NCBI GenBank assembly: GCA_027310185.1
Contig: DAIDBH010000010.1
Location: forward strand, 19,137-83,136
Length of the DNA: 64,000 nucleotides
Source of the DNA: Thermoplasmatales archaeon
GTDB lineage: Archaea; Thermoplasmatota; Thermoplasmata; Thermoplasmatales; Thermoplasmataceae
Direction: 5' to 3'
Shown: positions 7,539-25,439 of the stretch, one piece after another
How the letters are laid out: each line of letters opens with the position of its first letter
Numbering within the stretch: position 1 is the stretch's first letter
Made by a program: the position numbers and the translations under genes
The notes under the pieces: generated by a model
The model's input: the letters and a program-made list of their open reading frames with translations, nothing else
Database searches by the model: none
Told to the model about the DNA's origin: nothing

Positions 7539-9930
7539 TTTTTACACTCTTCCTGACTCTTTTTGTTTTAGTTGCACCTGAAGCTGGTCTTTTTGTACTC
7601 TTCTTCTGGATCGATGGTTTCTTCACTGCAGTACTTTTCACTTTTTCCATATCTGATTTTGGCTTTTTATTACTTTCGCATGATATGTTCGGACACATTT
7701 CCCTGAATCCGCTTCCGAAAGAAACAGCTATTATTGGTGCGTGACAGTATTCACATATCTTTCCTGTCATCTTAATTTCACCCTTCTGCGGGAGCGCATA
7801 TGTCTGCCTGCACTTTGGAAAGTTTGAGCATCCAAGAAATCTCTTCCCGTATTTTGATTGCCTGATTATCATGTGCCCGCCATCAAGAGGACAGAGACCG
7901 ATGTCTTTCTTTTCCGTGTTGAACTTGCATGAAGGATCAATGCATAATTTTTCCGGTGATTGACCTCTTCTTATCACAGTTATTACAGGTTTTCCACATA
8001 CCTCACAGTTCTCTTCAGAAGGCTTGATCAATCCCCTAATCTTATGATAATAGTCAATACAGTTTTCCCTCTCACACCTGAACCTTATTGTGTCCCTGAT
8101 CTTTATGGCCTGTATCTTTGTTCCATCAATATTGCATGTACCGACCACTGTTCCTGTTTCAAGCGCCCCCCTTATTATTTTCGCTATGGAATCCTTATTA
8201 TTTTCCAGTTCCTCCAATACACTTGAAAGCATGTTCCTGGATGTTGAAACGACTGAATCCTTTGTTTTCTCCCCCGCAGCGATGTTGTTCATGAACGATT
8301 CTAGCTCTGCAGTCATATCAGGCTCAGCTATCTTTGAATCCACTGTTGTAACTCCCACTATGAGAGATGAGCCAAGGGCTGTTGGCCTGACAGGGTTACC
8401 TTCAATGAACCCCCTGCTCTGAAGCTTATCTATAATATCATGCCTCGTACTCTTCGTTCCAAGATTGAGGTTTTCCATCTCCTTGATGAGCGAGGCCATA
8501 TCAAATCTTGATGGTGGCTTTGTTTCACCTTCTTCATTTCTCCAGTTTTCAGCCTTTACTTTCTCGTCTTTCTCAAGATCGGGGTGAAAGATGTCCTTGA
8601 ATTTTCTATATGTATATATTGACAGCCATCCAGGATCAACCACCCTCGTTCCGTTTGTCTTGAAATCATAACTTTCAATAGCTATCTTTGATGACTTTAC
8701 CTCCCTTGTACCTTCCCTGTAAAGTGTGGCCAGAAATCTCCTTGCTATGAGTTCATAGACCTTGGCTTCATCTGCTCTCAGGCTCCCACTCTTTGGAACC
8801 TCTGTTGGATAGATTGGTGGATGATCTGTTGCCTCCATCCTGCCCCTTGATGGGATTATTTTCTCCTGGGAAAGAACCATTTCAGCCTCTTTCTTCCATT
8901 CGCTATTTTTCAGCTTCTCAACAACGGCCTTGAGGTTTATGCTTCTCTGATATACCGTGTTGTCTGTTCTCGGATAGCTAATGAATCCCTTCACATATAG
9001 TGATTCGGCGATCTTCATTGCTCTTGACGGCATGACTCCTATTCTCGAAGCCTCTCTCATGAACTCAGTTGTATTGAAAGGTGCAGGCTTGTATATCCTC
9101 TCCATTCCTTTTTCGAACTCCTTTACAATTCCATCCTTTCCGATGATGTTATCAAGGATTTCCTTTGCCCTTTTCTCATCCTTTATTCTTCCTTCCTCGT
9201 AAATACCGGTAAAAACATCATCCTTGAGAAAATCAACCTTGACCTCCCAGAACTTTTCCGGGATGAAGTTTTCTATCTCTCTTTCCCTCTTAACGATCAG
9301 TCCAAGAGTGGGTGTCTGCACCCTTCCTATGGATAGAAAATTCTTTCCCAGCCTGTTCGTTATGAGTGAGAAAAACCTTGTAAGTACTGCTCCCCAGTAA
9401 AGATCGATCTCTTCCCTTGCAGCAGCTGAATCTGAAAGGTTATAATCCACATCTATGAAGTTTGCAAAAGCGTCCTTGATTTCCTTGCCTGTCAGGGCAC
9501 TGAACTTTGCCCTTTTAATTTCTCCGTTGAAAGATTTGTCCTTCTTGACAATATCCAGTGCTTCTGTACCGATGAGTTCCCCTTCCCTATCATAATCTGT
9601 AGCAATTATGACTCTTTTGACGCCCACTGAAAGTGTTTTTAGACTCTCATAGGCAGTCTTGTTCTTTACATTATGAATGACGTTAGATGAAATGAGTTCT
9701 TTCAGGTTTTCCAGTTTCCAGTCCTTGAGTGTTTTTGGAAAATCAATTTCGACAATGTGCCCACTCAGAGGGACTAGATAGAATCCACCAACGTCATTCT
9801 CATATTCTATGTAACTCAGGCCCTTGGATCTTTTCTGTTTTGATTTACCATCGGATAGAAAATAGGCAATTCTTCTTCCTGCATCAGCTTTCTCTGAAAT
9901 TATTAATGTATCTGGCAATAGATATCCCAA
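7531..9930 (-). CDS. topA: DNA topoisomerase IA
   Basis: TOPRIM SEK...ATDYDREGE, GRVQTPTL, active-site ISYPRTD, C-terminal Cys4 zinc ribbons and Lys-rich tail. Confidence 0.96.
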   Translation of the reverse strand: MGYLLPDTLIISEKADAGRRIAYFLSDGKSKQKRSKGLSYIEYENDVGGFYLVPLSGHIVEIDFPKTLKDWKLENLKELISSNVIHNVKNKTAYESLKTLSVGVKRVIIATDYDREGELIGTEALDIVKKDKSFNGEIKRAKFSALTGKEIKDAFANFIDVDYNLSDSAAAREEIDLYWGAVLTRFFSLITNRLGKNFLSIGRVQTPTLGLIVKREREIENFIPEKFWEVKVDFLKDDVFTGIYEEGRIKDEKRAKEILDNIIGKDGIVKEFEKGMERIYKPAPFNTTEFMREASRIGVMPSRAMKIAESLYVKGFISYPRTDNTVYQRSINLKAVVEKLKNSEWKKEAEMVLSQEKIIPSRGRMEATDHPPIYPTEVPKSGSLRADEAKVYELIARRFLATLYREGTREVKSSKIAIESYDFKTNGTRVVDPGWLSIYTYRKFKDIFHPDLEKDEKVKAENWRNEEGETKPPSRFDMASLIKEMENLNLGTKSTRHDIIDKLQSRGFIEGNPVRPTALGSSLIVGVTTVDSKIAEPDMTAELESFMNNIAAGEKTKDSVVSTSRNMLSSVLEELENNKDSIAKIIRGALETGTVVGTCNIDGTKIQAIKIRDTIRFRCERENCIDYYHKIRGLIKPSEENCEVCGKPVITVIRRGQSPEKLCIDPSCKFNTEKKDIGLCPLDGGHMIIRQSKYGKRFLGCSNFPKCRQTYALPQKGEIKMTGKICEYCHAPIIAVSFGSGFREMCPNISCESNKKPKSDMEKVKSTAVKKPSIQKKSTKRPASGATKTKRVRKSVKNA

Positions 9931-10013
9931 TGTATTTTTATGATATATAATATTTTTTATTCAATCCTCTTATTTTAGGAAACATTTAAAATTAGATTGA
10001 AATATGATGACTC

Positions 10014-11222
10014 ATGGCAGGAAAGATAAAAGAGATAGAAATATACAATGTAAGCGAGAAAACATCTGAAAAATCATCACCATGGAGTTCTACCATGATC
10101 ATTGTCAAGGTAACAACGAGTGACGGCATAGTTGGATACGGAGAGGCACCAACAACCCTGATGACACTTCCAGTGAAGGAAAGTGCTGAGGAAGTAAAAA
10201 GGGTTTTCCTGAATAAGGATGTAAATGAAATCTACAAAAACACAATGGAGTTTTACAAGCATTCATTCTATCTTTCAAGGTCCATGGAAGCTACATCAGC
10301 CCTGAGTGCTGTGGAAATGGCATGCTGGGATATAGTTGGGAAAAGCTGCAAGGAACCCGTTTACAATCTTCTCGGAGGCAAGATGAGGGATAGTGTCAGG
10401 GCTTACAGCAATGGCTGGTATTCCGATTGTGTCACCGCTGATGACTTCGTAGACAAGGCAAAGGAGATAAGGAAGAAGGGTTTTGATGCCGTAAAGTTCG
10501 ATCCCTTTGGAAATAATTATGATACAATTAACAAGAAAGGACTGGAAAGCGCAGAGAACATTGTTTCAGGTCTAAGGGAATCATTTGGGGACTCCATGGA
10601 CCTGCTAATAGAATTTCATGGAAGATTCTCCATGGAAGCTGCAAAAAAGGCCACACAGATCCTTGAGCCATACGACTGCTTCTTCTTTGAGGAACCCCTT
10701 CATCCTGAACTTGAAATGAGGCTTCCTGAGCTGAGAAGTACTGTGAATACTCCAATAGCACTTGGAGAAAGAGTTCTTAATGCAAGAGATTTCATGAGGA
10801 ATATTGTTGAAGGCAAGGTGGATATAATCCAGCCAGATGTAACGAACTCAAGAGGAATTCTTGAATCCTTCAAGATTGCCACAATTGCTGATGCATGGGG
10901 AATTCCAGTGGCATATCACAATGCCTTTGGACCAGTCCAGACTGCAGCCACCCTTAACCTTGATACAACAATTAATAATTTCATCATACAGGAGAGTTTT
11001 GAGGAATCCTGGCCAGACTGGAAGAAAAAGCTGCTTAAAAGTGGATATAAGCTGGAAAACGGTCATTTCAAGCTATCTGGGAAACCAGGTCTTGGAATTG
11101 AGATGGATGAAAAGTCTTTAAAGGATCATATGGTTAATGGAATGGAACCGTTTGATCCAGAATCACCCCCATGGGTAGTGTCTGGTACATATGTAGGGGA
11201 GGGAACCGATGGAAAGCAATGA
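10014..11222 (+). CDS. Enolase-superfamily (mandelate racemase type) sugar-acid dehydratase, probably gluconate/galactonate dehydratase
   Basis: KxD (KFDPFG), EFHGR, FFEEP, GER, QPD, HNAFGP, QES motifs as in Gad/DgoD. Confidence 0.85.
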   Translation: MAGKIKEIEIYNVSEKTSEKSSPWSSTMIIVKVTTSDGIVGYGEAPTTLMTLPVKESAEEVKRVFLNKDVNEIYKNTMEFYKHSFYLSRSMEATSALSAVEMACWDIVGKSCKEPVYNLLGGKMRDSVRAYSNGWYSDCVTADDFVDKAKEIRKKGFDAVKFDPFGNNYDTINKKGLESAENIVSGLRESFGDSMDLLIEFHGRFSMEAAKKATQILEPYDCFFFEEPLHPELEMRLPELRSTVNTPIALGERVLNARDFMRNIVEGKVDIIQPDVTNSRGILESFKIATIADAWGIPVAYHNAFGPVQTAATLNLDTTINNFIIQESFEESWPDWKKKLLKSGYKLENGHFKLSGKPGLGIEMDEKSLKDHMVNGMEPFDPESPPWVVSGTYVGEGTDGKQ

Positions 11223-12162
11223 GATTGGAATTAAGATAGCCGAACTGCAACAGGTCAAGGAAAACCTGGAAAAAACCATTAAGATGGCAGAAGAGAAGAA
11301 GAGGGAAATAGAAAACATGCTCCAGGGTCTGGTGAAGATAGACTCTGCTTCTGTGCCACAGGTAAAGGTGGAAGAGGCGAAGAAAGTGCTTGTGGATCTG
11401 AAAGAGCCAATGGTACCCAGAAAAAACCAGAAAATTTCAACAGGTATTTCCAAGATAGATGAATTGCTTCTAGGTGGTTTACCCATGCCGTCGAACGTTG
11501 TTCTGTTTGGTGCGCCATTCACCTCGAAGGATATACTTGCAACTAATTTCATGGCTAATTCTATCAAGGAAAACGTTCCAGTGGTAATAATCACAGCAGA
11601 TAAAGATCTTAACCAGGTAAAATATGAAATAGCACAGACGCTCAGTGTAGAACCGGAAGTTGTTGACGGTTTCGAAGATGATGGGATGATTAGGTTTGTT
11701 GACCTTTATTCAAAATCGATCCAGTCCCAGAGCCCGTCAAAAAGAGCGGTTGTTATAGATAACATATCTAACCTCAGCGTTCTTTTGAAATCTGTGGAGA
11801 CCATTGAACAGGAATTGCTCAGGACCTATCCTTTTTACAGACTTGTATTCATTTCTCTTACAGCCTTCGTTCCGCAGTTTGACGAGAAGGTTTTCATGAA
11901 ATTCACGCAGCAGTTCACACAGAAGAGGAAGGCAAACAGGTGCACAGCACTGTATATGCTTGAAGATGGACTCTTTGATCAGAAGGTTTTTGAAACAATC
12001 AGCTACATAATGGATGGCACCATAGAATTCAAGATAGTGAATGCAAAACAGTATGTAAAAGTGGTCGGTTTATCAAATGCAAGAACAAGAGAATGGGTTG
12101 AAGTCTACAACAGGGGAGAAACCTTTGATCTTGGATCCTTCTCACTGGAAAGAGTGAGATAA
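11209..12162 (+). CDS. KaiC/RAD55-like RecA-fold ATPase domain with N-terminal coiled coil, Walker A degenerate
   Basis: ISTGISKIDELLLGGLP entry motif; GAPFTSKD in place of GxxGxGK[T/S]; YIMDGTIEF near the C-terminus. Confidence 0.82.
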   Translation: MESNEIGIKIAELQQVKENLEKTIKMAEEKKREIENMLQGLVKIDSASVPQVKVEEAKKVLVDLKEPMVPRKNQKISTGISKIDELLLGGLPMPSNVVLFGAPFTSKDILATNFMANSIKENVPVVIITADKDLNQVKYEIAQTLSVEPEVVDGFEDDGMIRFVDLYSKSIQSQSPSKRAVVIDNISNLSVLLKSVETIEQELLRTYPFYRLVFISLTAFVPQFDEKVFMKFTQQFTQKRKANRCTALYMLEDGLFDQKVFETISYIMDGTIEFKIVNAKQYVKVVGLSNARTREWVEVYNRGETFDLGSFSLERVR

Positions 12163-12203
12163 ACCAAATTTTTGTCCACTCACCTTAGTTTCAGATTAAT
12201 TTT

Positions 12204-12265
12204 AACCGCTCAGTCTGCCTGTCATTCATCACAAATCAGTCAAGGCTGAATTCATCACAGCGGTT
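12204..12265 (-). ncRNA. Box C/D 2'-O-methylation guide sRNA
   Basis: Minus strand AACCGCT-GTGATGA(C)-ATTCAGCCTTGA-CTGA(D')-TTT-GTGATGA(C')-ATGACAGGCAGA-CTGA(D)-GCGGTT: four consensus boxes, two 12-nt guides, terminal stem AACCGC/GCGGTT. Confidence 0.92.
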
Positions 12266-12410
12266 GTATAGGTATTGGATACCTTTTCTTAAGTGTTCGC
12301 TGTCCTGGTTCCAGATAATACAAGTTCGTGAAAGCAAGATAGATGACTAAAAGATGGACATATTATTTCTGCTCACCATATGTTAAAATATTTCCCACGC
12401 ATCAATATCT

Positions 12411-13700
12411 ATGGATAAATTTTTCAAGGATGCGTTGGAAATCAGGGAACTTGCAAAGGAACATAATAAACTGTTTGAAGAAAGCGTTCCCCTGATCGCC
12501 TCAGAAAATGTGATGAGTCCGCTTGCAATGGAGATGCTTCTCACTGACTTTGGTCACAGGTATGCAGAAGGGTTGCCTCACCAGAGATACTACCAGGGAA
12601 ACTTCTTTGTAGATCAGCTTGAAGATAAGGTTATAGAACTGGGAAAGAAGCTGTATAATGCACCACAGTTTGACCCCAGGCCAGTATCTGGAACAAATGC
12701 TAATATGGGAGTTATTTTTGGGCTTACAAAACCCATGGAGAAGATCTGTGCCCCAGATCTTTCAGGTGGTGGCCATATAAGTGCTGCAAAATTCGGCGCA
12801 CTTGGATTCAGGGGTCTTGATATCGTGAATTACCCATATGATGAGGAAACAATGACTATTGATGTTGACGGTGCAAGAAAAACAATTCTTGAGACAAAGC
12901 CAAATTTGTGTTTATTCGGGCAATCTGTATTCTTATTCCCTGCACCGCTGAAGGAACTGAGAGACACCTTTCAGGAAGTTGGCTGCAAGGTGTGGTATGA
13001 TGGTGCCCACGTAGCAGGACTAATAGCAGGAAAGAAGTTCCAGGATCCCCTGAGAGAAGGGGCTGATGTCATAACTGGTTCTACTCACAAAACCCTTCCT
13101 GGGCCTCAGCATGGCATGGTAATTGGGAATACTGATGACAGGACATGGAAAAAGGTTCAGAAGGGAGTATTCCCTGGAGTCCTGAGCAATCATCATCTTA
13201 ATACAATGGCAGCTCTCGGTATAACACTCGCAGAAATGTTGGATTATGGAGAAGCATATGCACAGAAGATAATAGATAATGCAAGAACTCTTGCAGAGGA
13301 GCTTCACGCGCTTGGTATGGATGTCCTGGCAGAGAAAAGAGGTTTTACAAGATCACACACACTGGTGGCTGATGTTAGAAAATTCGGAGGGGGGAAGGAA
13401 GTTGCTGAAAAGCTTGAAAGATGTAACATCATACTAAACAAGAACCTCATTCCTGTTGATAAAAATAGAAATTCACAGGATCCAAGTGGCATAAGAATTG
13501 GAACTCAGGAGATCACAAGAATAGGATTTGAAAAGAATGATGTTAAAGCCCTTGCAGAAATTATGATGAAGATCCTCAATAACAATCTCAGTGAAGAAAA
13601 AGCAAAAGAAGAGGTCATGAATTTGAAATCCGGGTTTAAAGAAGTTAAATTCTGTTATGGAAAGGCAAATCCATATGAATATATAGAATTATTCAAATAA
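12411..13700 (+). CDS. glyA: Serine hydroxymethyltransferase
   Basis: LIASEN, RYAEG, YDGAH and PLP-lysine motif STHKTLPGP. Confidence 0.97.
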   Translation: MDKFFKDALEIRELAKEHNKLFEESVPLIASENVMSPLAMEMLLTDFGHRYAEGLPHQRYYQGNFFVDQLEDKVIELGKKLYNAPQFDPRPVSGTNANMGVIFGLTKPMEKICAPDLSGGGHISAAKFGALGFRGLDIVNYPYDEETMTIDVDGARKTILETKPNLCLFGQSVFLFPAPLKELRDTFQEVGCKVWYDGAHVAGLIAGKKFQDPLREGADVITGSTHKTLPGPQHGMVIGNTDDRTWKKVQKGVFPGVLSNHHLNTMAALGITLAEMLDYGEAYAQKIIDNARTLAEELHALGMDVLAEKRGFTRSHTLVADVRKFGGGKEVAEKLERCNIILNKNLIPVDKNRNSQDPSGIRIGTQEITRIGFEKNDVKALAEIMMKILNNNLSEEKAKEEVMNLKSGFKEVKFCYGKANPYEYIELFK

Positions 13701-13773
13701 TTTTTTCATTTAACCATACATAAATCAATCAAGTATTTCATAACTATTTTTAACCTATTCAAAATGCTGTTGT

Positions 13774-14397
13774 GTGAAGATTGGTGTAATTGGGTTCCAG
13801 GGTGATGTGGAAGAGCATATCAATATCCTGAAGAGGCTCCATGATAAGGGAGAAGATATAGAACCAGTAAGGGTGAAGAATAAAGATCAGTTAAGGGAAG
13901 TTTCCGCCATAATAATACCAGGAGGAGAAAGTACAACTATTTATAAGCTCATAAAAGAGTATGGAATTTATGAAGATATAATAAGTTCTGTGAAGGGAGG
14001 GAAACCATTAATGGGTACCTGTGCTGGTATCATTCTGGCGTCAGCAAAAACCAATGATACAAGAGTTGAAGGAATGGGTTTGCTTGATGTTGAGATAGAA
14101 AGGAATGCCTACGGAAGGCAGGGAGAATCTTTCATTGATTATGTTGAAATTAAAAATGTTGGGAACTACATGGCTGTTTTTATAAGAGCCCCAATTATTA
14201 AATCAGTTAACCATGGTGATATAATGGCATACCAGGCTGGAAAACCAGTAATGGTAAAAGATGGAAATGTCCTAGGACTCACGTTTCATCCAGAATTAAC
14301 AGATGATACGAGGATACATGAATATTTTATAAAGATGATAGGGGGAGAGGGGGGTATTTCCAATGGAACAAATGAAGAGAGGGTGACTGTAAAATGA
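13774..14397 (+). CDS. pdxT: Pyridoxal 5'-phosphate synthase glutaminase subunit
   Basis: QGDVEEH, PGGESTT, GTCAG, RNAYGRQ, FIRAP, FHPEL. Confidence 0.96.
   Translation: MKIGVIGFQGDVEEHINILKRLHDKGEDIEPVRVKNKDQLREVSAIIIPGGESTTIYKLIKEYGIYEDIISSVKGGKPLMGTCAGIILASAKTNDTRVEGMGLLDVEIERNAYGRQGESFIDYVEIKNVGNYMAVFIRAPIIKSVNHGDIMAYQAGKPVMVKDGNVLGLTFHPELTDDTRIHEYFIKMIGGEGGISNGTNEERVTVK
14341..14369 (-). repeat. ORB-like element, left copy (inverted relative to 15444-15472)
   Basis: Minus strand GTTCCATTGGAAATACCCCCCTCTCCCCC. Core resembles archaeal ORB TCCAnTnGAAA; lies within the pdxT 3' end. Confidence 0.6.
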
Positions 14398-15443
14398 GAA
14401 CGATTCTATACGATGAACATGTAAAAATGAATGCAAATATTGTCGACTTTCACGGTTGGGATATGCCACTATATTATGAATCAATAATAAAGGAACATAT
14501 GTATGTTAGACAGAAGTGTGGAGTTTTTGATGTTTCCCATATGGGTGACGTATTCATAACCGGTGCAGGGGCTGAAGAAACTCTCATGAAACTTCTACCA
14601 TCAGATATATCAAAAATGAATGATGGAGACTGTTTATACACTGCGTTCCTCAATAATGATGGAAATATGATTGATGATACAATAATATATAGATTTAGTA
14701 AACAAAAATTTCTATGTGTTCCCAATGCTGCAACCACAGACAGGATACTGGATCATATAATAAAAAATAAGATGAACAACTGTGAAGTTAAGAATTCTTC
14801 AAATGAATTATCATGTATAGCAATTCAGGGTAAGGATTCTGTAGATATCATGAAACATCTCGACTTAAAGTTTCCAGAACCTTTCAAGTTTTACGAAGAA
14901 AAAGGAATGATAATTTCAGGCACTGGATATACCGGTGAAACAGGATGTGAAATAATTATAAGAAATAGTGAAGCAGTGAATTTATGGGAAAAAATAGTGA
15001 ATGACTTGCGGAAGATTGGATGCGGTCCATGTGGTTTGGGTGCCAGAGATACATTGAGAATGGAAAAGGGAATGCTTCTTTCAGGCCAGGACTTCAATTC
15101 AGATAGAAATCCATATGAAGCTTCTGTTTCCTTCATTGTAAATAATGATCATGAGTATATTGGAAAAGAGAATCTTTTATCAAAACAGAAACCTGAAAGA
15201 ATATTCAGAGGAATTGTGATGGATGAAAAGGGTTCATTTCCAAGACATGGTAATTTAATTTATGATGAATCTGGCAAGGAAATAGGTCTAATCACAAGTG
15301 GCAGTATTTCACCAATTCTTGGAAAGGGAATAGGCCTCGGTTACATAAACAGGAATAATTCAAAAAGTGATACTTCAATCATGGTTGGTATAAGGGATAA
15401 AAAATTCAATGGAAAAGTTTCAAGGCCAAGGATAGTTCCTTAG
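14394..15443 (+). CDS. gcvT: Glycine cleavage system aminomethyltransferase T
   Basis: FHGWDMP, FDVSHMG, GYTGETG, GLGARDTLRMEKG. Confidence 0.95.
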   Translation: MRTILYDEHVKMNANIVDFHGWDMPLYYESIIKEHMYVRQKCGVFDVSHMGDVFITGAGAEETLMKLLPSDISKMNDGDCLYTAFLNNDGNMIDDTIIYRFSKQKFLCVPNAATTDRILDHIIKNKMNNCEVKNSSNELSCIAIQGKDSVDIMKHLDLKFPEPFKFYEEKGMIISGTGYTGETGCEIIIRNSEAVNLWEKIVNDLRKIGCGPCGLGARDTLRMEKGMLLSGQDFNSDRNPYEASVSFIVNNDHEYIGKENLLSKQKPERIFRGIVMDEKGSFPRHGNLIYDESGKEIGLITSGSISPILGKGIGLGYINRNNSKSDTSIMVGIRDKKFNGKVSRPRIVP

Positions 15444-15472
15444 GCTCCACTTGAAACATACCCCCCTCCCCC
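15444..15472 (+). repeat. ORB-like element, right copy
   Basis: GCTCCACTTGAAACATACCCCCCTCCCCC directly after the gcvT stop; imperfect inverted repeat of 14341-14369. Confidence 0.6.
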
Positions 15473-15639
15473 TAATATAATTGATTTACAATTTCTTCTT
15501 TCTTCTTTTTCCAGAGATCTATTTCATAATTATAATATCCCTGCTGGTCTCTATTCTGTCTGATCTGGTCAAGCCTCTCATTAACATAGGCGAGCTCACC
15601 CTGGAGCTTCATTCTCATTTGTTTATCTACAACAGGCAT
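15472..15639 (-). CDS. Small hypothetical protein (55 aa, helical/charged)
   Basis: Hand translation MPVVDKQMRMKLQGELAYVNERLDQIRQNRDQQGYYNYEIDLWKKKKEEIVNQLY*. Fills the intergenic gap; below the ORF-track cutoff. Confidence 0.6.
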   Translation of the reverse strand: MPVVDKQMRMKLQGELAYVNERLDQIRQNRDQQGYYNYEIDLWKKKKEEIVNQLY

Positions 15640-15694
15640 GATCTGTAATTGCAGATTATATGAATAAGTTTACTATTTTATGGAATGTTTTTTT

Positions 15695-15720
15695 ATATGT
15701 TATCAAATATGATAACATAT
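15695..15720. promoter_or_regulatory. Perfect 11-bp inverted repeat, candidate operator between the small ORF and nrdJ
   Basis: ATATGTTATCA-AATA-TGATAACATAT. Confidence 0.45.
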
Positions 15721-15819
15721 TGTTACCTTTTTCAAAATTAATTTTGATATTTATAATGGTATTAAAATTGCTATCAGTGTTACATTAAAATTAAATAGAA
15801 ACACAACATCTAATTTGTA

Positions 15820-18171
15820 ATGATAAAATCAATCAAAAAAAGAGACGGAAAGATCGAGGATTTCGATCAAACAAAAATATCAAGGGCAATCTACAAAGCA
15901 ATGCTTTCATTGAAGTTCGGTAATATGCACGATGCAGAAATTCTATCTGATAAAGTAGTGAAGGAATTGAGTGCAAGGAAGGAAATTCCAACAGTAGAGA
16001 ATATACAGGACACAGTAGAATCTGTTCTTATGGAAACACAAATAGATGGAAGAAAATTCAACGAGGTTGCAAAGGCTTACATACTATACAGGGAAAAGAG
16101 GAGATTCATCAGAGAGGAGAAGGAAAGGCTTGGTGTGAAAGATGATCTCAAATTAACCCTGAATGCTGTAAAGGTTCTTGAAGCCAGATATTTACTCAAG
16201 GACGAGGAAGGCAAGATCATAGAAACTCCTGACCAGATGTTCAGGAGAGTGGCAAACCACGTTGGAGTTATTGATGCGCTTTATGATTACGCCAACTACC
16301 AGAAAAAAGGAACAGTAAGGGAGGATGGAAAGAAGATATCAAACCTCTTAAACACCCAGATTGAAGTTCTTGAAAGAGGATTCAATGAGCTTGTAAATGA
16401 TGGTGTACTGAAAGGAACGTTTGGACAGTTCATGGATTTCATATACACAAAGCCAACCAGTGCAGAGGACACAATTGAAAAATTCCACAAAATGATGAAG
16501 AGCCTGGAATATGTTCCAAACTCACCAACAATGATGAATGCAGGTGCAAGACTGGGTCAGCTTTCAGCATGTTTCGTTCTACCAGTTGGAGACAGTATAG
16601 AAGAAATTTTCGAAGCAGTGAAACAGACAGCAGAAATTCACAAGTCTGGAGGAGGTACAGGGTTCTCATTCTCCAGACTGAGAAATAAGGATGACATTGT
16701 TGGTTCTACCAAGGGAGTAGCATCAGGCCCGGTATCATTCATGAAAATTTTCGATACCACAACAGAAGTCATTAAGCAGGGAGGAAAGAGAAGAGGAGCC
16801 AACATGGGAATCCTCAGGTATGATCATCCAGACATAATGGAATTCATAACAAGCAAGGACTCTGAAAATACCATTCTTAGAAATTTCAACATTTCAGTGG
16901 GAATGGAAGACGAATTCTTTGAAAAACTTGACAGTGACGGATATGTTGATCTCAAGAACCCGAAGACTGGAAAGGTCGTATCAAGAATAAAGGCAAGAAC
17001 CATGTGGGATTCCATAATAACTCATGCATGGAAAACTGCGGACCCTGGACTGATTTTCCTTGATGAAATCAACAGGGCAAATCCTGTAAAAAATATAGCG
17101 GATATCGAGGCAACAAACCCATGTGGTGAACAGCCTCTCATGCCATATGAATCATGCAATCTTGGATCAATAAATCTCGCAAAGTTTGTCAAGGAAGACA
17201 ACACAATTGACTGGGAAAGATTGAGGGACACAGTTCATTTATCAACAAGATTCCTTGATAATGTTGTGGATGCCAATAACTTTCCAGTTAGGCAGATAAA
17301 GGAAATGACAAGAAAAACAAGAAAGATTGGACTTGGAATAATGGGCTTTGCAGATATGCTCATCATGCTGGGTGTTCCATATGACAGTGAGGAAGCATTG
17401 AAGATAGCTGAGAATGTAATGAGCTTCCTGGATATAGAATCACACAAGGAATCTCAGAATCTTGCTAACGAAAGGGGAGTATTCCCGGGATGGTATGGTT
17501 CAGAATATGAAAAGGAAGACATACTCATGAGGAACTCCACAACCACAACAATAGCACCAACAGGTACAATTTCCATTATAGCTGGTTGTTCTTCCTCAAT
17601 AGAACCTCTCTTTGCTATCGCATTCATGAGGCATGTATTGAATGGCCAGGAGCTTATCGAAGTGAACCCACTGTTTGAAGAGGTAATGAAAAAGAGAAAT
17701 CTATACTCTGAGAAGCTGATGCAGGATGTAGCAACAACTGGAAACCTTTCAAAGATAGACCTTCCCCTGGATCTCAAGAGACTCTTCAAAACTGCCCACG
17801 AGATTGATCCAGAATGGCATGTACTGATGCAGGCAACATTCCAGAAATATTGTGACTCAGGTGTTTCAAAGACAATCAATCTGCCTAACGATGCAACACC
17901 GGAAGATATCGGTAAGGCTTACAGGCTGGCCAAGGACCTTCACTGCAAAGGAATAACTGTGTACAGGGACAGAAGCAAGACAGAACAGGTTCTATATTCT
18001 GGAACATCGGGTAAGAAGGAGGAAGCTTCAAAAGAAGAGAAAAAGGAAAAAATCGCCATTATAGAAAAGATGACCTCTGAGGGAAAGGAGAGAAAGAAGA
18101 TGGATACTAAGTACCTCAGACTTGAGGCTACTTTCGATCCAGCATGCCCAGACGGAAAGTGCGATAAGTAG
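15820..18171 (+). CDS. nrdJ: Adenosylcobalamin-dependent (class II) ribonucleotide reductase with N-terminal ATP cone
   Basis: IKKRDG ATP cone, PNSPT, LSACFV, TNPCGEQ, CNLGSIN, IAPTGT, C-terminal Cys pair CPDGKC. Confidence 0.95.
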
Positions 18172-18482
18172 TGGGCTTCCAGGAGATTAAGGAGGAGGTA
18201 ATATCCAGAAAACTCCTCAATTATTCGGATGAAATACACACATTAAAACCATTGATCAACGAGATGCTTATAGGTCTGTCAAGAAAGAATATATTTCTGA
18301 CTGCTGTTAGAGATTACAGCAACGATTTCAACGTAAGGGAATTTTCAATTTTTCTTGAATCACTTCTGGAGGGAAAGGGAGATGAATACCAGAAGAAACT
18401 CTATTACGAAGAAAATTTTGATGGAATAATCCAATCATCAATAGAATGGATAAAGGGTCATACAAAAGAAAACAAGATCTGA
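18171..18482 (+). CDS. Hypothetical protein, translationally coupled to nrdJ
   Basis: 103-aa ORF whose GTG overlaps the nrdJ stop; normal codon style. Confidence 0.65.
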   Translation: MGFQEIKEEVISRKLLNYSDEIHTLKPLINEMLIGLSRKNIFLTAVRDYSNDFNVREFSIFLESLLEGKGDEYQKKLYYEENFDGIIQSSIEWIKGHTKENKI

Positions 18483-18539
18483 TAAATCATAATCAATGTA
18501 AAAAGAAAATCTTATTAGCGCAAAACTCATTTATCTGTA

Positions 18540-19025
18540 TTGGCAATAGAATCATTCCTAAACAGTAATGTCACGGTGGTGTACGATGGCAACATGACCC
18601 GCCTAGTCTGTACTCTTCTTACCTATGATGACATGGGCATAATGGTAGCTTATCGAAATCACAAGTTATTCATCCCGTGGAGATTTATTGAGGAAATAAG
18701 GGATGTAACGGAACAGGACAGAATTGAAGACTCAAACAAAATGAAAGAGGAAACGAAGAAAAAGACAAATCCTGTGATCATCTTTTCTATCACAACACTG
18801 TTCATAGGTGGTCTAGTTACTTATCTTGCCTACACATTCCTGAGCCAAATACCACAGTATGGTTTTCAGAGAGGAGTGACCGCGGCAATTGCATCACCAA
18901 TAATAGTTGTAGGGATTCTAGGAACGTTCCTGGCAATGTTTGCAGGAAAGGGAAAAATAGCCACAGTTCTTTCAATGGTTTCGGTAATCGCCGTAGTAAT
19001 AATATTGATATTTTTTGGCTCCTGA
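18540..19025 (+). CDS. Membrane protein with a possible N-terminal Sm/Hfq-like domain and about 3 TM helices
   Basis: N-terminal FLNSNVTVVY...CTLLTYDD...LFIPWRFIEEI pattern; hydrophobic C-terminal half. Confidence 0.65.
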   Translation: MAIESFLNSNVTVVYDGNMTRLVCTLLTYDDMGIMVAYRNHKLFIPWRFIEEIRDVTEQDRIEDSNKMKEETKKKTNPVIIFSITTLFIGGLVTYLAYTFLSQIPQYGFQRGVTAAIASPIIVVGILGTFLAMFAGKGKIATVLSMVSVIAVVIILIFFGS

Positions 19026-19041
19026 AAATCTCAAAATTTTA

Positions 19042-19746
19042 CTATGAGGTTTCAGGCACATTGAGTTTCTTCAGTCCATGTATTGAAAAGGCATAAACCG
19101 CCAGGAAGAAGACAATGAAGAACGGTATTATCAAAAGCTCATCTATAGGTTTCACAGTTTCTATGTACCAGAATGCGGAAAATGAGAACAGTAAGGATGA
19201 AACGACCACTTTCATTATTGCCTGCTTGATCTTCCTTATCTGTGATCTCAATACTATGGAGAAAACTATTACAATTCCAATTCCGAGGAATATTCCATAT
19301 GCAGTAGAGGAATAACTTTCAGGATAGAGCCCAACAAGTACAATAGCAGCCTCGAAAGCTTCTATAACTCCGGCTGTGTAAGCTGTAAGGGAAACACCAG
19401 AATCAGTTGGCTCTTCCTTATGGGATTTGGGGAAGCTTTTCAGGTGCTGAAATTTCATGGACCTTTTGGCACTCTTGGCCAGTCTTTGAGCGAAATACAG
19501 CAGGAGAGTGGCGGAAACAAGTCTCACATAAATCAGTGGAAGCAGTGAAATTGCACTACCTATAAATGCCGTAGGAATAAGAACAGTAATTACGCCAAGA
19601 GACGCAGCCAGTAGTGGAATATTGCTCTTAGCATCAACTGACAGGGACATGGAAATTGCAGATGCTTCTGACATTTCCAGTACTATTATACCAGTTGCTG
19701 CAAGGAATATGGCAGGATCGAAATATGACACGTTGCAGCATGACAT
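19042..19746 (-). CDS. COG4280/GDT1-FTR1-like membrane protein (putative cation transporter)
   Basis: Two repeated halves, each opening with an intramembrane ExxE motif (VLEMSEAS; VIEAFEAA); 6-7 TM segments. Confidence 0.7.
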   Translation of the reverse strand: MSCCNVSYFDPAIFLAATGIIVLEMSEASAISMSLSVDAKSNIPLLAASLGVITVLIPTAFIGSAISLLPLIYVRLVSATLLLYFAQRLAKSAKRSMKFQHLKSFPKSHKEEPTDSGVSLTAYTAGVIEAFEAAIVLVGLYPESYSSTAYGIFLGIGIVIVFSIVLRSQIRKIKQAIMKVVVSSLLFSFSAFWYIETVKPIDELLIIPFFIVFFLAVYAFSIHGLKKLNVPETS

Positions 19747-19787
19747 TCAAATTAAAAAGTTTTTATGTTACGACACTATGGCAATTA

Positions 19788-19907
19788 ATGTGTTCTGATT
19801 GTTTCGAGGAGCAGTGCACATGCGAATACTGTGTGGAATACAGGCATCAGCAGGCATGCCCCGTATGTGGTCACCTTGTATTCCTGGACTGCTGCCAGGG
19901 ATTTTAG
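19788..19907 (+). CDS. Cys-rich micro-protein (39 aa, metallothionein/zinc-finger-like)
   Basis: MCSDCFEEQCTCEYCVEYRHQQACPVCGHLVFLDCCQGF. TATA-like TTTTTAT ~25 nt upstream of ATG 19788. The ORF track extends it upstream into the opposite-strand gene. Confidence 0.7.
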   Translation: MCSDCFEEQCTCEYCVEYRHQQACPVCGHLVFLDCCQGF

Positions 19908-20024
19908 GAAGAAAACGTGAATAAAAAATGCATTATGCAATATGATGTTTTCCAGTGATTTTTTTGGAGTGAGAATCAGTGATAAAAGAGAAAAATTATA
20001 TTTCCAATCTGAAATTATCCATGG

Positions 20025-21053
20025 TTGGTTGACCTACAGACATTCATATTAAGGGTAAAAAAGGCATTAAAACACAATATAGGTAAAACCATACTTATGG
20101 CAGTGTTAGTACTAATATACAGCGTGTTCTCTGAATATTACATAGAAAACCCAATTGGAAGCTCCGGCATTCACTCTCTTTTCGAATCGCTCTGGTGGAC
20201 AATGCAGACAGTTACGACGGTTGGGTATGGGGACGTAACAATTGTTGGATTCATGGGAAAATTAAATGCCATATTCATAATGATTATCGGTGTGGGAAGT
20301 TTCAGTCTATTGCTCGTGTCAATAGGAGCTGAACTTATAGACGCCAAGCTTCTCAGAAGATTTGGAGAGGTGAGAACAAAAATGAAGGATCATGTAATAA
20401 TATGTAATTACTCAGAAAAGCAGGCAGACATAATTGAGGCCATAATGAAGGATAAGAATCCCTTTATAGTACTTGGTCAGGATCCCCCGGCAAAGGAAAA
20501 GGAAAACATGGAGTTTGTGAAGGGAAACCCCCTGGATTATAATGACCTCAAGAGGGCTGGTATTGAAAACAGTCACACAGCAATAATTTTTCCAAACGAG
20601 AAATATGGCTCAGAAAATTCACTTGCTGTAGATGCTGAATCGATTCTTATCGTGATGACAGTCAAAAAATTAAATCCGGAAATCAACACGATTGTGGAAC
20701 TCATGAATAAATCAAGCAGAGAGCATGCCATTGAATCAGGCGCAGACGAAATTATAGTGAGAGGGGATATGAGTTCCTCAGCTATTGTTAAACTGATAAA
20801 TAATCCCGGGTCCTGGAAATTCATTTCAAAAATATTTTCTCAATCAGACGGCATGGACTTCATAGAAACAACAGAAGATGATTATAAGGGAAAAAGTTTC
20901 AGTGAACTATACCGGTCAGTGGAAAATGACTGGAGGAAAATAATTGCCATTAGAAAGGGTGATGATTACCTGTTAAGGCCTGATGAGAACTCTATATATC
21001 AGGGAGAATTACTCATTATTCTGGAGAAATCCAAGAAAACAATGAAAAATTAA
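20025..21053 (+). CDS. MthK-like potassium channel (2TM pore + RCK/TrkA-N domain)
   Basis: Selectivity filter TTVGYGD; RCK domain starting DHVIICN. Confidence 0.93.
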   Translation: MVDLQTFILRVKKALKHNIGKTILMAVLVLIYSVFSEYYIENPIGSSGIHSLFESLWWTMQTVTTVGYGDVTIVGFMGKLNAIFIMIIGVGSFSLLLVSIGAELIDAKLLRRFGEVRTKMKDHVIICNYSEKQADIIEAIMKDKNPFIVLGQDPPAKEKENMEFVKGNPLDYNDLKRAGIENSHTAIIFPNEKYGSENSLAVDAESILIVMTVKKLNPEINTIVELMNKSSREHAIESGADEIIVRGDMSSSAIVKLINNPGSWKFISKIFSQSDGMDFIETTEDDYKGKSFSELYRSVENDWRKIIAIRKGDDYLLRPDENSIYQGELLIILEKSKKTMKN

Positions 21054-21084
21054 ATAAGGTTTGCAACATTGCAGTAAAAAAGAA

Positions 21085-21169
21085 GCAGAGGTTGTCGAGA
21101 TTGGTCAAAGGCGCCAGATTGAGGGTCTGGTTTCGTAGGGATACGAGGGTTCAAATCCCTCCCTCTGCA
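21085..21169 (+). tRNA. tRNA-Leu (GAG)
   Basis: GCAGAGG/CCTCTGC acceptor stem, anticodon arm CCAGA-TTGAGGG-TCTGG, long variable arm, GGTTCAAATCC T-loop, discriminator A, no encoded CCA. Confidence 0.96.
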
Positions 21170-21271
21170 TAGTTGTTTTTATGAATCTACTTAGATATCT
21201 TCCCTAAAAACTATATTTTGAACTGATTAAAACCAGATATATACACAAATTAAATTGTTATTCAAATAAAA

Positions 21272-21418
21272 CTACTTGTCAAGCTTCTTCTTCAGGTCAT
21301 TAATTTCATTCTGAATATTCTTGTCCTTTGGATTTCGCCTTGCCCTTTCTTCCAGTTCCTCGATCTTTGATTCTATACTCTTTTTCTTTCTTGTGAGATC
21401 TCTTTTGCTAAGCCCCAT
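21272..21418 (-). CDS. Small basic helical protein (48 aa)
   Basis: Hand translation MGLSKRDLTRKKKSIESKIEELEERARRNPKDKNIQNEINDLKKKLDK*. Purine-rich coding style; AT-rich promoter-like region upstream. Confidence 0.75.
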   Translation of the reverse strand: MGLSKRDLTRKKKSIESKIEELEERARRNPKDKNIQNEINDLKKKLDK

Positions 21419-21542
21419 ACGTACTAATTTAATCAGGTAAAATAAATATTTGCATTTGGAAGAATATTCAAATTCAATAATTACTATTAAAATGACTGTG
21501 GCAAAACAATAAAGTTTTACACATTAAATTCATAGTGGAACT

Positions 21543-23924: not shown

Positions 23925-24016
23925 AGAATCAAAATTTTCATTATTTTCATCCTAATAATGCAAAGCCAATGGGGAGAATTATAAAGAATATCAACATGAA
24001 GTTAGAGGTGTGAACT

Positions 24017-24577
24017 TTGAGTGGAGAATTAACAAGAAGTCAGAAAAATTTTTTGAACAAACTTATGGAGGAATCCTCTGAAAGACTTGAAGCTTCAGAA
24101 AAATTCATGAGAAATCTTGGAAAGGGAGAGATATCTGAACTGAGTGTACAGGAGGCATCCAGACTTATTGATGAACTGCAAAAGATAAAGACTGAGGGTG
24201 GCAGTTCCATTGGAGGCAATGGGCCAACGAAGAAGCAGAAAACATTCATTTCAAACTTGCAGGATAGTGAAGAGAGAATAGCGTTCACAAGAAAGTATCT
24301 CGAGAAGGCTGGGAAGAAAAGTGTAGATGAGTTGAATGTGAAGGAGGCATCGGCCCTTATAGACGGTCTAATGGAAAAGAAAGGAGATCCTGAAAGATCA
24401 AGGGCACAGACAGATTTCCAGGCAACACCAAAGCAGATAAATTATATCAGGAGTCTTCAGAAATCTGAAAAAGATCAAAAAACAGTTACAGAGTACCTGA
24501 AATCAATAGGCAAGAAGTCCCTGGATGAGATCACGAGAACAGAGGCAAGTACAATTATTGAAAAACTTAAAATTTAG
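24017..24577 (+). CDS. Hypothetical protein made of three tandem ~60-aa helical repeats
   Basis: Three copies of TxxQxx[FY][IL]xxL...GK..[IVL][SD]E[LI]...EASx[LI]I[DE]xL. Confidence 0.8.
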   Translation: MSGELTRSQKNFLNKLMEESSERLEASEKFMRNLGKGEISELSVQEASRLIDELQKIKTEGGSSIGGNGPTKKQKTFISNLQDSEERIAFTRKYLEKAGKKSVDELNVKEASALIDGLMEKKGDPERSRAQTDFQATPKQINYIRSLQKSEKDQKTVTEYLKSIGKKSLDEITRTEASTIIEKLKI

Positions 24578-24673
24578 AACCGTTTTCAAAGAAATTTTTA
24601 AAAATCCATATGACTTCATGATTTTTTCAATTAATCACAGATATGATTTTATTTCCATATAGTATCAGGTATT

Positions 24674-25240
24674 ATGAAAGGAGTCAATAATGCAACAGAT
24701 CTGATAATTGAAAACAATCCCATGTACTCACTCATGATAAAGAGTGGTATTGTGAATTATACAAGTCTCGCAAGGAAGATAAAGAAGCAGGTAGAATCAA
24801 TGACCGGAAAAGAGGTAAAACTCAATACACTTGTAAAATACATCACATCCATAACACCAAGTGAAAAGGAGGATTACCAGATCAACTACCTGAAGAAATC
24901 CAATCTAGATGTGGAATTCAAGTTTGCAGAAAAGGAGGGAAAGGAATTTGATCCTGAACGGGAAGACATATTCCTGGTTTATAAAACACAGGATGGCTTC
25001 AAGTTTCTGGTCAGAAATGATCCCGAAGGAAATCTGGCATGTATACGAATAACCCTTCCCCCAGAGGCAAAGAAGGCGCCAGGAATAACTCTTTTTGTTG
25101 TGGAATTCCTCAGCATGCAACAGATTTCGATTGAAAAGATATACAGGTTTGATCTTGAAATCATTCTTGTATGCGCAGTGGATGTAGCAAGCAAGGTAAT
25201 ATCAAGCCTGAGTGATCTGATATTCAAATCCTACCTCTGA
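24674..25240 (+). CDS. Conserved archaeal protein with N-terminal helical domain and ACT-like C-terminus
   Basis: GIVNYTSLARKI motif and 'I.LPPE...PGI' ACT-like segment; lies upstream of the met genes. Confidence 0.7.
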   Translation: MKGVNNATDLIIENNPMYSLMIKSGIVNYTSLARKIKKQVESMTGKEVKLNTLVKYITSITPSEKEDYQINYLKKSNLDVEFKFAEKEGKEFDPEREDIFLVYKTQDGFKFLVRNDPEGNLACIRITLPPEAKKAPGITLFVVEFLSMQQISIEKIYRFDLEIILVCAVDVASKVISSLSDLIFKSYL

Positions 25241-25439
25241 CATCCTCTCAATTGACAGTACCATCAAAAACCAATCTGAAATTTGCTTTCCTGCCAGAAT
25301 GTTCAAAAGGTTGGAATGTAATTGATTAGACATACCAGTCTATGATTTCAGGGGATCATCTTAATATTTTGAAAAGTAAAATTACTCACACTAATTTTTT
25401 ATAATTTAAAAACTTAATACAAAGCCAATATATGAAAAA

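Follow-up and report, generated by a model that had tools for sequence, protein, structure and literature searches.

Conserved ORB-like boxes bracket gcvT in a Thermoplasmatales archaeon: a candidate replication origin embedded in coding DNA

In the canonical archaeal oriC, as described for oriC1 of Haloarcula hispanica (PMC3936714) and for the ORBs of Methanomassiliicoccales (PMC4153887), a dyad with a GAAAY extension stands next to a homopolymeric G:C run, and the boxes form an inverted pair with dyads facing inward, runs facing outward and AT-rich DNA between them. The predicted Methanomassiliicoccales ORBs are linked to orc1/cdc6.1 and their pairs are spaced by 39–256 nt; for Ca. M. intestinalis the listing also includes isolated ORBs distant from orc1/cdc6 (PMC4153887). 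The G-runs of the H. hispanica oriC are essential, a result that does not extend to a G-to-C swap (PMC3936714). The locus presented here, from a Thermoplasmatales archaeon, shares the dyad, the adjacent run, the inverted arrangement and the AT-rich interior with these systems, and its dyad-and-run layout is the same as that of the ORB(-)/DUE/ORB(+) pattern (preprint 10.64898/2026.08.15.744077). It is considered a candidate replication origin of the ORB-DUE-ORB type embedded in coding DNA, a reading which, judged from sequence, comes close to being probable. Origin predictors in current use search only intergenic DNA beside initiator genes, in regions of 120 bp or more (same preprint), and would therefore miss such a coding-embedded origin. 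No mapped Thermoplasmatales origin was found in the literature covered (Arora et al. 2014 on Picrophilus lay outside this coverage), nor was any earlier description linking ORBs with Thermoplasma, Thermoplasmatales or aminomethyltransferase. The features of the locus, within the 64 kb stretch of DNA that was analysed as a whole (the window), are as follows.

9970 to 15600, no strand: polarity change of the A-versus-T skew at fourfold sites (breakpoint profile t about 4)
13774 to 14397, plus strand: pdxT, with a Pfam SNO domain reaching residue 189 of 207
14341 to 14369, minus strand: left ORB-like box, within the PdxT tail codons; on the minus strand it reads as a dyad, then a C-run
14394 to 15443, plus strand: gcvT (aminomethyltransferase; Pfam GCV_T and GCV_T_C), the candidate unwinding region between the boxes
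15435 to 15472, plus strand: right ORB-like box, whose ancestral dyad half (15435–15444) includes the gcvT stop (15441–15443)
15472 to 15639, minus strand: predicted 55-aa ORF without a Pfam family, convergent with gcvT, its stop sharing the final base of the C-run
15640 to 15819, no strand: AT-rich intergenic DNA preceding the ribonucleotide reductase gene (GC 19.4%)
15820 to 18171, plus strand: ribonucleotide reductase with an ATP-cone domain (Pfam match)

The initial annotation had placed two elements at 14341–14369 and 15444–15472 and described them as an imperfect inverted pair, and both coordinates and letters are correct. The final 18 codons of pdxT contain the left element, the right one starts one base past the gcvT stop, and together they form the longest (29 nt, 79% complementary) of 34 inverted repeats in the 13–17 kb interval. 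The position given for the right core holds as well, but the core as quoted there is partly made by an insertion, because the window carries an extra 9 nt (15444–15452) in comparison with four relatives, and the ancestral dyad begins at 15435. On the plus strand, the left box consists of a G-run (14341–14354) and a dyad (14358–14368), while the right box continues beyond its dyad half with the 9-nt insertion specific to the window lineage, a GAAAC with spacer (15453–15460) and the C-run (15461–15472). In the right boxes of the relatives the dyad is centred on the gcvT stop codon, and one homologue (P0174) reads through this box. The left box is held by PdxT residues 190–207, a non-conserved C-terminal tail outside the domain, and the stop codon of pdxT shares bases with the start codon of gcvT; the right box extends over the gcvT stop and fills a gap of 28 nt, so that the pair does not have an intergenic location.

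Neither half of the motif is significant by itself in the window: TCCANTNGAAA occurs twice where 1.58 matches are expected (48 of 100 shuffled sequences have at least 2), and the C-run pattern likewise occurs twice, with 0.79 expected (at least 2 in 21 of 100 shuffled sequences). The two halves coincide at only two places within the 64 kb, which are the two boxes. With the ORB core pattern GTTCCANTGGAAAY, the left box is the sole match without mismatches in the window, and it scores 22.2 bits, compared with 16.3 for the best unrelated site, against a weight matrix built only from the boxes of the other genomes; across genomes, the boxes score 20–23 bits. Each genome has two strong boxes, and clusters of at least three ORBs or mini-ORBs were not found. 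A weight-matrix scan gave no match of at least 11 bits inside gcvT; a weak third copy (11.9–13.7 bits) is present about 450 nt downstream in the relative L063 and has a counterpart in L007. Within the interval of the skew switch, ORB-like sequence is absent from the other intergenic regions, 9930–10014 and 12162–12411.

Judged by their letters, the dyads really are ORB-like. The TCCA..GAAA core with its GAAAY extension is present, and comparison with Table 2 of PMC4153887 shows that the left box agrees with the Methanomassiliicoccales ORB consensus at 13 of 14 positions and is identical to a predicted M. luminyensis ORB over 14 nt. The left box of L001 is equal to the first 15 nt of the pan-archaeal ORB consensus, and the right box of L063, with its G-run, agrees with 18 of the 22 positions of the Methanomassiliicoccales order consensus (same table). 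The inverted pair, with dyads proximal and inward and runs distal, surrounds AT-rich DNA; this interior is a 1.05-kb gene, unlike a short intergenic unwinding element, and the boxes are spaced by about 1.08–1.16 kb. The C-string in place of a G-string 3′ of the core had been pointed out as a departure from the norm. Across the five genomes, 8 of the 10 boxes have C next to the dyad when read on the ORB strand, namely every left box together with the right boxes of the window, L001 and L002. The canonical G-run is found only in the other two, which are the right boxes of L007 and L063.

A profile search of genome contigs with a PdxT alignment listed 80 loci, mostly bacterial, and the source genome of the window is not among them. 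GcvT is present in four of these (L001, L002, L007 and L063). All four, with GC contents of 31–50%, have the unit pdxT-box-gcvT-box with both boxes at equivalent places, while the other flanking genes differ, and the conservation of the boxes reaches across distant Thermoplasmata. The initial annotation had asked whether the nucleotide motif is kept even where the frame of the PdxT tail differs. Among the 120 PdxT homologues listed, the dyad is found in two reading frames: 83 have the full frame-A signature, 10 half of it, 2 are near frame A, 11 have the frame-B signature and 14 have no tail. Since the same dyad is encoded in two reading frames, the constraint is on the nucleotides and not on the peptide, and the conservation of the left box, as read from these sequences, is at the nucleotide level.

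The DNA between the boxes is AT-rich, as previously counted by hand (16 of 60 GC at 14641–14700 and 14 of 60 at 14761–14820, both exact). The GC content of gcvT is 34.3%, and the inter-box segment falls at the 1.3rd GC percentile of windows of the same size. The GC content of gcvT tracks that of the host, and at fourfold sites it is the lowest of every locus (rank 1 of 53, 15, 18, 9 and 9 genes). When codon families are controlled for, the preference of gcvT for AT-ending synonymous codons amounts to z = -5.56 in the window, where the next gene has -2.82, and to -6.54, -4.16, -4.13 and -5.88 in the other loci, with the next-lowest gene of each locus between -2.82 and -1.12. The adjacent pdxT is not depleted in GC at synonymous sites. 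The inter-box DNA is selectively AT-enriched at synonymous sites in all five genomes. This enrichment could belong to gcvT itself (expression level or mRNA constraint), as all gcvT genes compared carry the boxes.

The ribonucleotide reductase gene, which had been placed about 350 nt away as nrdJ, starts 348 nt past the right box, and the lowest-GC 200 nt of the 64 kb (18.5%) start at 15642. The neighbourhood is rich in genes of one-carbon and dNTP metabolism (glyA, gcvT, ribonucleotide reductase, MTHFR and metE). The lack of cdc6 in the window, also stated earlier, is borne out by a Pfam scan of 56 ORFs (several without any match), none of which belongs to the Orc1/Cdc6 family; the same holds for 31 ORFs of L001, L002 and L007, up to 10 kb around the locus, so that no adjacent initiator gene is found in the window or in these three relatives. 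Rfam returned only two tRNAs in the window and nothing near threshold at 14200–15850. The promoter and terminator scan rested on bacterial consensus patterns, which are uninformative for an archaeon.

Strand asymmetry was to be checked according to the initial annotation, and the result is mixed. In the window, the fourfold-site A-T skew is reversed at approximately 10–16 kb: for minus-strand genes it is 0.255 left of the locus and 0.007 right of it (Fisher p = 7.5e-7). The fit of the best breakpoints (9970–15600) is equalled by only 1 of 2000 permutations, and a block test gives t = 4.13 compared with at most 2.49 (|t|) for non-overlapping blocks of 8 genes elsewhere. On the negative side, the G-C skew at fourfold sites has no switch in the window, L063 lacks the A-T switch, and L007 shows it weakly and at a displaced position. 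The breakpoint profile of L002 peaks at gcvT with t = 3.42; the same statistic is biased upward in 32 control loci (7 reach t ≥ 2 and one reaches 3.16), and the L002 result is therefore only suggestive. The whole-sequence GC skew was discarded as an origin signal, since it merely follows gene orientation. The sign of the skew alone cannot tell an origin from a terminus; gene orientation alone favours an origin, with 33 of the 48 genes to the right of the locus pointing away from it.

Taken as an oriC, the locus has the ORB likeness, the conservation, the AT-rich interior and the skew of the window in its favour, and the earlier proposal stands to that extent; against it are the lack of an adjacent cdc6, the run polarity, the box number, a spacing far above the 39–256 nt of the predicted Methanomassiliicoccales pairs, and the skew results of L007 and L063. 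The boxes would be ORB-type binding sites for an initiator of the Orc1/Cdc6 family, set in inverted orientation with their dyads pointing towards each other, and the approximately 1.05 kb of gcvT coding sequence between them would be the unwinding region of a chromosomal origin. Each box would be occupied by one initiator molecule, with the winged helix on the dyad and the AAA+ initiator-specific motif on the homopolymer run; MCM would then be loaded onto the AT-rich inter-box DNA, from which forks would depart both ways. With hardly any intergenic space available in these genomes, the boxes may have been absorbed into the gene ends, the left one being translated as a dispensable PdxT tail and the right one carrying the gcvT stop. 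In its fullest form, which we put forward tentatively but as a serious possibility, this would be an ancient chromosomal origin of Thermoplasmatales and related Thermoplasmata, unlinked to an initiator gene and wholly coding, with C-type ORBs; the gcvT frame would serve as the unwinding element, which would drive its use of A/T-ending codons, and the flipped run may mark sites recognised by the second Orc1/Cdc6 paralogue.

The strongest alternative, although an unlikely one, is that the boxes are bound by an Orc1/Cdc6 paralogue or initiator acting as a regulator or architectural protein and not at a firing origin. Occupation of both gcvT ends would tie the one-carbon supply for dTMP to the replication state. 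The ORB likeness counts for this explanation as much as for an origin, and the gene neighbourhood fits it. Both boxes stay with the boundaries of a single gene, and the flanking gene order is variable, which would suit a gene-specific role and speaks against an origin. There are also precedents in the isolated ORBs without a nearby orc1/cdc6 in Ca. M. intestinalis (PMC4153887) and in Orc1-2, described as a non-initiator regulator (PMC9738581). Picrophilus, with a single Orc1/Cdc6, has a PdxT without tail, and T. acidophilum has two paralogues, with half a box in the Thermoplasma PdxT, a correlation based on a single case. Regulation leaves unexplained the synonymous AT enrichment of the whole gene in five of five loci and the polarity switch of the window, and it is hard to see what a box at the 3′ end of the gene would regulate.

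It is improbable that an ordinary dimeric transcription factor dedicated to gcvT uses the dyads as its operators, the ORB likeness being convergent. The dyad core does form a 5-1-5 palindrome, 25–45 nt ahead of the gcvT start, the left dyad of L007 and L063 is followed by a TATA-like sequence, and the composite is found only at gcvT within the 64 kb. In the window, L001 and L002, however, no promoter-like sequence lies between dyad and start, and gcvT overlaps pdxT there. An identity of 14–15 nt with published ORBs, including the asymmetric GAAAY extension, is hard to obtain by convergence; no regulator gene is conserved nearby, and the AT enrichment is left unexplained.

A further explanation places the function in the mRNA, where the left G-run and dyad would pair with the dyad and C-run at the stop into a stem closing the gcvT cistron, its AU-rich interior being unstructured, with a role in processing, stability or ribosome recycling. 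The boxes do mark the limits of the cistron, G predominates in the left run on the sense strand of all five DNA sequences (with all tails in agreement), and the predicted left-right duplexes reach -44.7 (window), -42.1 (L001) and -42.9 (L002) kcal/mol. Any two copies of a palindrome pair automatically, however, and the sense strand of L007 and L063 has G in both runs, with duplexes of -20.6 and -28.7 kcal/mol. There is no Rfam match and no compensatory change, while three one-sided changes break pairs (in the left half-dyads of L002 and L007 and the right one of L007). An RNA stem was rejected as the leading idea for this lack of covariation, and we regard it as very unlikely. Hardly credible is the proposal that the boxes are relic terminal inverted repeats of a mobile cassette once carrying gcvT, or a chance repeat: one repeat just upstream of the start and one overlapping the stop do resemble the geometry of an insertion sequence, but the unit adjoins pdxT in all five genomes (the relatives being from the loci listed) with a single pair and no dispersed copies in the 64 kb, GcvT and PdxT identities fall in parallel across relatives, the GC content of gcvT tracks the host, and neutral relics and chance are excluded by the two-frame conservation in 104 to 106 of the 120 homologues listed, so the cassette was rejected.

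If the locus is an origin, it would mean that an archaeal origin can overlap the coding sequence of a housekeeping gene and shape its codon usage, and that the polarity of the ORB run is more flexible than in the textbook motif; it would also provide a concrete conserved site in the cultivable Thermoplasma and Cuniculiplasma. If it is not, the boxes would still rank with the most deeply conserved elements at nucleotide level that this clade has within coding sequence, and would suggest that one-carbon metabolism is controlled by an Orc1-family or other factor.

Compared with a canonical oriC, the candidate origin has the run on the opposite strand in 8 of 10 boxes, its boxes lie in or on coding sequence with a spacing of about 1.1 kb around a housekeeping gene, and it has neither an adjacent initiator gene nor a third strong box. 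The motif of Orc1-2 is a short promoter hexanucleotide, unlike the full ORB dyad pair at the gene ends seen here. The Orc1-2 of Sulfolobales, a non-initiator paralogue regulating DNA-damage genes at non-origin sites, offers a parallel to a regulatory role of the boxes (PMC9738581). ORB-type elements within a protein-coding gene are also known from Thermococcales, where the DP1 gene holds ORB/mini-ORB repeats; those adjoin a cdc6-linked origin, whereas here no cdc6 is near and a metabolic gene is flanked (PMC2643942). The main oriC of Hyperthermus butylicus has the ORB(-)/DUE/ORB(+) arrangement without a neighbouring initiator gene, as is the case for the locus described here, and it is counted among the typical oriC structures (preprint 10.64898/2026.08.15.744077).

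Both elements of the inverted pair stand in the sequence just as the initial annotation gave them, one at each end of gcvT, within a gene order taken from the ORF list and Pfam scans.

Features at the pdxT-gcvT locus of the window
12411-13700, glyA
13774-14397, pdxT
14341-14369, left box (plus-strand reading: G-run, 2-base spacer, 5-1-5 palindrome)
14394-15443, gcvT (start overlaps the pdxT stop)
15444-15472, right box (core, spacer, C-run)
15472-15639, minus strand, 55-aa ORF convergent with gcvT, no Pfam family
180 nt between the 55-aa ORF and the next gene, AT-rich spacer
15820-18171, ribonucleotide reductase gene with ATP-cone domain

Taken singly, neither part of the motif is remarkable in 64 kb (core: 2 matches, 1.58 expected; C-run: 2 matches, 0.79 expected); the two coincide at two places and nowhere else in this stretch, and among the 34 inverted repeats detected in 13-17 kb the resulting left/right pair is the longest. 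The left box, the sole perfect match to GTTCCANTGGAAAY in the window, scores 22.2 bits with a weight matrix derived from the other genomes' boxes alone, compared with 16.3 bits for the highest-scoring unrelated site of the window. This site is a dyad at 57709-57724, within a FAA-hydrolase gene and without an adjoining G- or C-run. Nothing else ORB-like (resembling the archaeal origin recognition box bound by Orc1/Cdc6) was found in the 10-16 kb interval. Compared with four relatives, the right box of the window is seen in the alignment to carry a 9-nt insertion (15444-15452) directly after the gcvT stop, which gives rise to another dyad-like core overlapping the first.

The best named protein relatives are from Cuniculiplasma and other Thermoplasmatales. 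A cluster of one-carbon and nucleotide-supply genes (glyA, gcvT, ribonucleotide reductase, MTHFR-like and cobalamin-independent methionine synthase) spans 12411-28184, and the ribonucleotide reductase gene has the fourth lowest fourfold-site GC among 53 genes (0.243). The C-terminal part of the 55-aa ORF resembles, by eye, the last part of a small ORF located on the minus strand 3' of gcvT in the related locus L007. Unexpectedly for an archaeon, the ORF at 24017-24577 weakly matches the Pfam family of bacteriophage Mu GemA (E = 7.7e-9). In line with the noted absence of cdc6, none of the 56 window ORFs scanned with Pfam matches the Orc1/Cdc6 family; the KaiC-like (RecA-superfamily) ATPase at 11209-12162, just 5' of glyA, is by Pfam no Orc1/Cdc6 homologue.

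The comparison with relatives proposed in the initial annotation used loci from a PdxT-based genome scan, for which the matches listed were mostly bacterial. Among these, tblastn found GcvT in 4 of 80 loci (L001, L002, L007 and L063, with 42, 50, 33 and 31% GC, respectively). The pair is conserved in all four: gcvT follows pdxT, the tail of pdxT contains the left box, and the right box is at the gcvT stop, while the other flanking genes vary among these lineages. The centre of the right dyad is the stop codon TAG in each, as in the window apart from its insertion. Four other Thermoplasmata loci in which pdxT has no gcvT 3' of it (L037, L041, L053 and L080) have neither tail nor box. Among the neighbouring genes, no orc1/cdc6 was found by Pfam in 31 ORFs of L001, L002 and L007. 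L007 (7914-8639, identified by Pfam) and probably L063 (7914-8639), the two low-GC relatives, also encode PCNA, on the strand opposite to pdxT and 1.4 kb upstream of it. The same two loci contain a third, weaker ORB-like copy (11.9-13.7 bits; L063 12202-12228, L007 about 12198-12225), made of a dyad, a 7-nt spacer and a C-run, about 450 nt 3' of the right box, where a small ORF on the minus strand has its 5' end; the copy in L007 is followed by AT-rich intergenic DNA.

At the protein level, the left box falls within PdxT residues 190-207, the Pfam domain ending at residue 189. Comparison of the C-termini of the best 120 PdxT homologues gave the frame-one signature of the dyad (Ser, Asn/Thr/Ser/Ile, Gly) in 83, preceded by Gly/Glu/Arg-rich residues as expected from a G-run, half of it in 10, a near match to it in 2, and the signature of the same dyad read in another frame (Pro, Leu/Met/Val, Glu) in 11; the tail is absent in 14 (mainly Ferroglobus-type, plus Picrophilus and a few others). 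The motif is thus kept where the frame of the PdxT tail differs, a point the initial annotation had singled out, and the same DNA word in two frames indicates constraint on nucleotides rather than on the peptide. A Val-Pro C-terminus is present in 82 of the best 120 GcvT homologues, and in one homologue, P0174, the protein continues past the stop with residues that the box and C-run would encode. The longest contigs are of identical size for 31 PdxT/GcvT cluster pairs (7 on contigs of at most 5,332 nt), an indirect sign that pdxT and gcvT are widely adjacent.

The DNA between the boxes is indeed AT-rich: it lies at the 1.3rd percentile of GC among same-size windows, and gcvT has 34.3% GC (window: 39.9%). 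The depletion is found at silent positions. Fourfold-site GC is lower in gcvT than in any other gene at all five loci assessed, each of them box-bearing (rank 1 of 53, 15, 18, 9 and 9), and is well below that of pooled neighbours (binomial p 0.0035 to 1.8e-7). With amino-acid and codon-family usage controlled over all synonymous families, gcvT has z = -5.56, -6.54, -4.16, -4.13 and -5.88, and the next-lowest gene per locus lies between -2.82 and -1.12; pdxT has no fourfold-site depletion. The GC of gcvT follows that of the host at a constant deficit, which argues for ongoing selection or mutation bias and not for recent transfer. Such silent enrichment would be expected of an unwinding element (DUE) selected to melt easily, and also of frequently single-stranded DNA prone to cytosine deamination.

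Since whole-sequence skews merely follow gene orientation, strand asymmetry was assessed gene by gene from A versus T at fourfold sites, with a coding-strand term. In the window, the best-fitting polarity switch lies at 9,970-15,600 (t about 4), a fit reached by 1 of 2000 permutations; the observed |t| is 4.13, compared with at most 2.49 in any block of 8 consecutive genes avoiding the leftmost 8. The skew of minus-strand genes is 0.255 left of the locus and 0.007 right of it (Fisher p = 7.5e-7), and that of plus-strand genes 0.115 and 0.195 (p = 0.07). To the right, 33 of 48 genes are directed away from the locus, which favours an origin over a terminus. The breakpoint profile of L002 peaks at gcvT (t = 3.42). 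L063 gives no A-T signal, and L007 has a weak one with its best breakpoint 4-6 kb upstream. G-C skew at fourfold sites gives no switch in the window. Among 32 control loci, t was at least 2 in 7 and 3.16 in 1, with a maximum of 3.28. The window result alone is counted as solid.

The boxes are real, ancient and constrained at the nucleotide level. Their best-supported reading, which we hold tentatively, is an origin of the ORB-DUE-ORB type embedded in the pdxT-gcvT coding DNA; flipped runs, a missing initiator gene, few boxes and the absence of skew in two relatives leave this candidate well short of established. It is unlikely that an Orc1/Cdc6 paralogue acts at the boxes as a regulator or architectural protein: their position at gene ends and the surrounding genes of one-carbon and dNTP supply would fit, as would the single observation that Picrophilus, without the PdxT tail, has one Orc1/Cdc6, but codon usage and the polarity switch would go unexplained. 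Binding by a dedicated transcription factor is quite improbable, since 14-15 nt of ORB sequence would have to have arisen convergently and the AT enrichment is left unaccounted for. We consider an RNA stem formed by the two boxes in the mRNA very improbable, as the pairing predicted at -42 to -45 kcal/mol in three genomes weakens to -21 and -29 in those with G in both runs, pairs are lost through three one-sided substitutions with none compensated, and no Rfam family matches. A mobile-element relic is ruled out by the constant position beside pdxT in all five loci and the deep conservation.

No prior description of the boxes was found in the literature covered, which excluded Arora et al. 2014 and the supplements of the Ori-Finder-Arch preprint; either could bear on the claim of novelty. 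Current origin predictors confine themselves to intergenic regions of 120 bp or more, according to a preprint (10.64898/2026.08.15.744077). In the account of the same preprint, the winged helix recognises the dyad, and the AAA+ initiator-specific motif recognises the G-rich element.

With the sequences in Table 2 of PMC4153887 as reference, the left box of the window does not differ over 14 nt from an ORB predicted for the Methanomassiliicoccales member M. luminyensis, and it agrees with the consensus of that order at 13 of 14 positions; the left box of L001 reproduces nucleotides 1-15 of the pan-archaeal consensus, and the right box of L063, including its G-run, matches the order consensus at 18 of 22 positions. 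The top strand of H. hispanica oriC1, as given in PMC3936714, has its runs on the outer side of the ORBs, C on the left one and G on the right one, and mutation of either run abolishes origin function. The runs are likewise outer here, but 8 of the 10 boxes (two per locus in the window and four relatives) have them on the opposite strand, the C-string in place of a G-string that had been remarked on initially; canonical polarity is limited to the right boxes of L007 and L063. As judged from sequence, this is the main departure from the textbook ORB.
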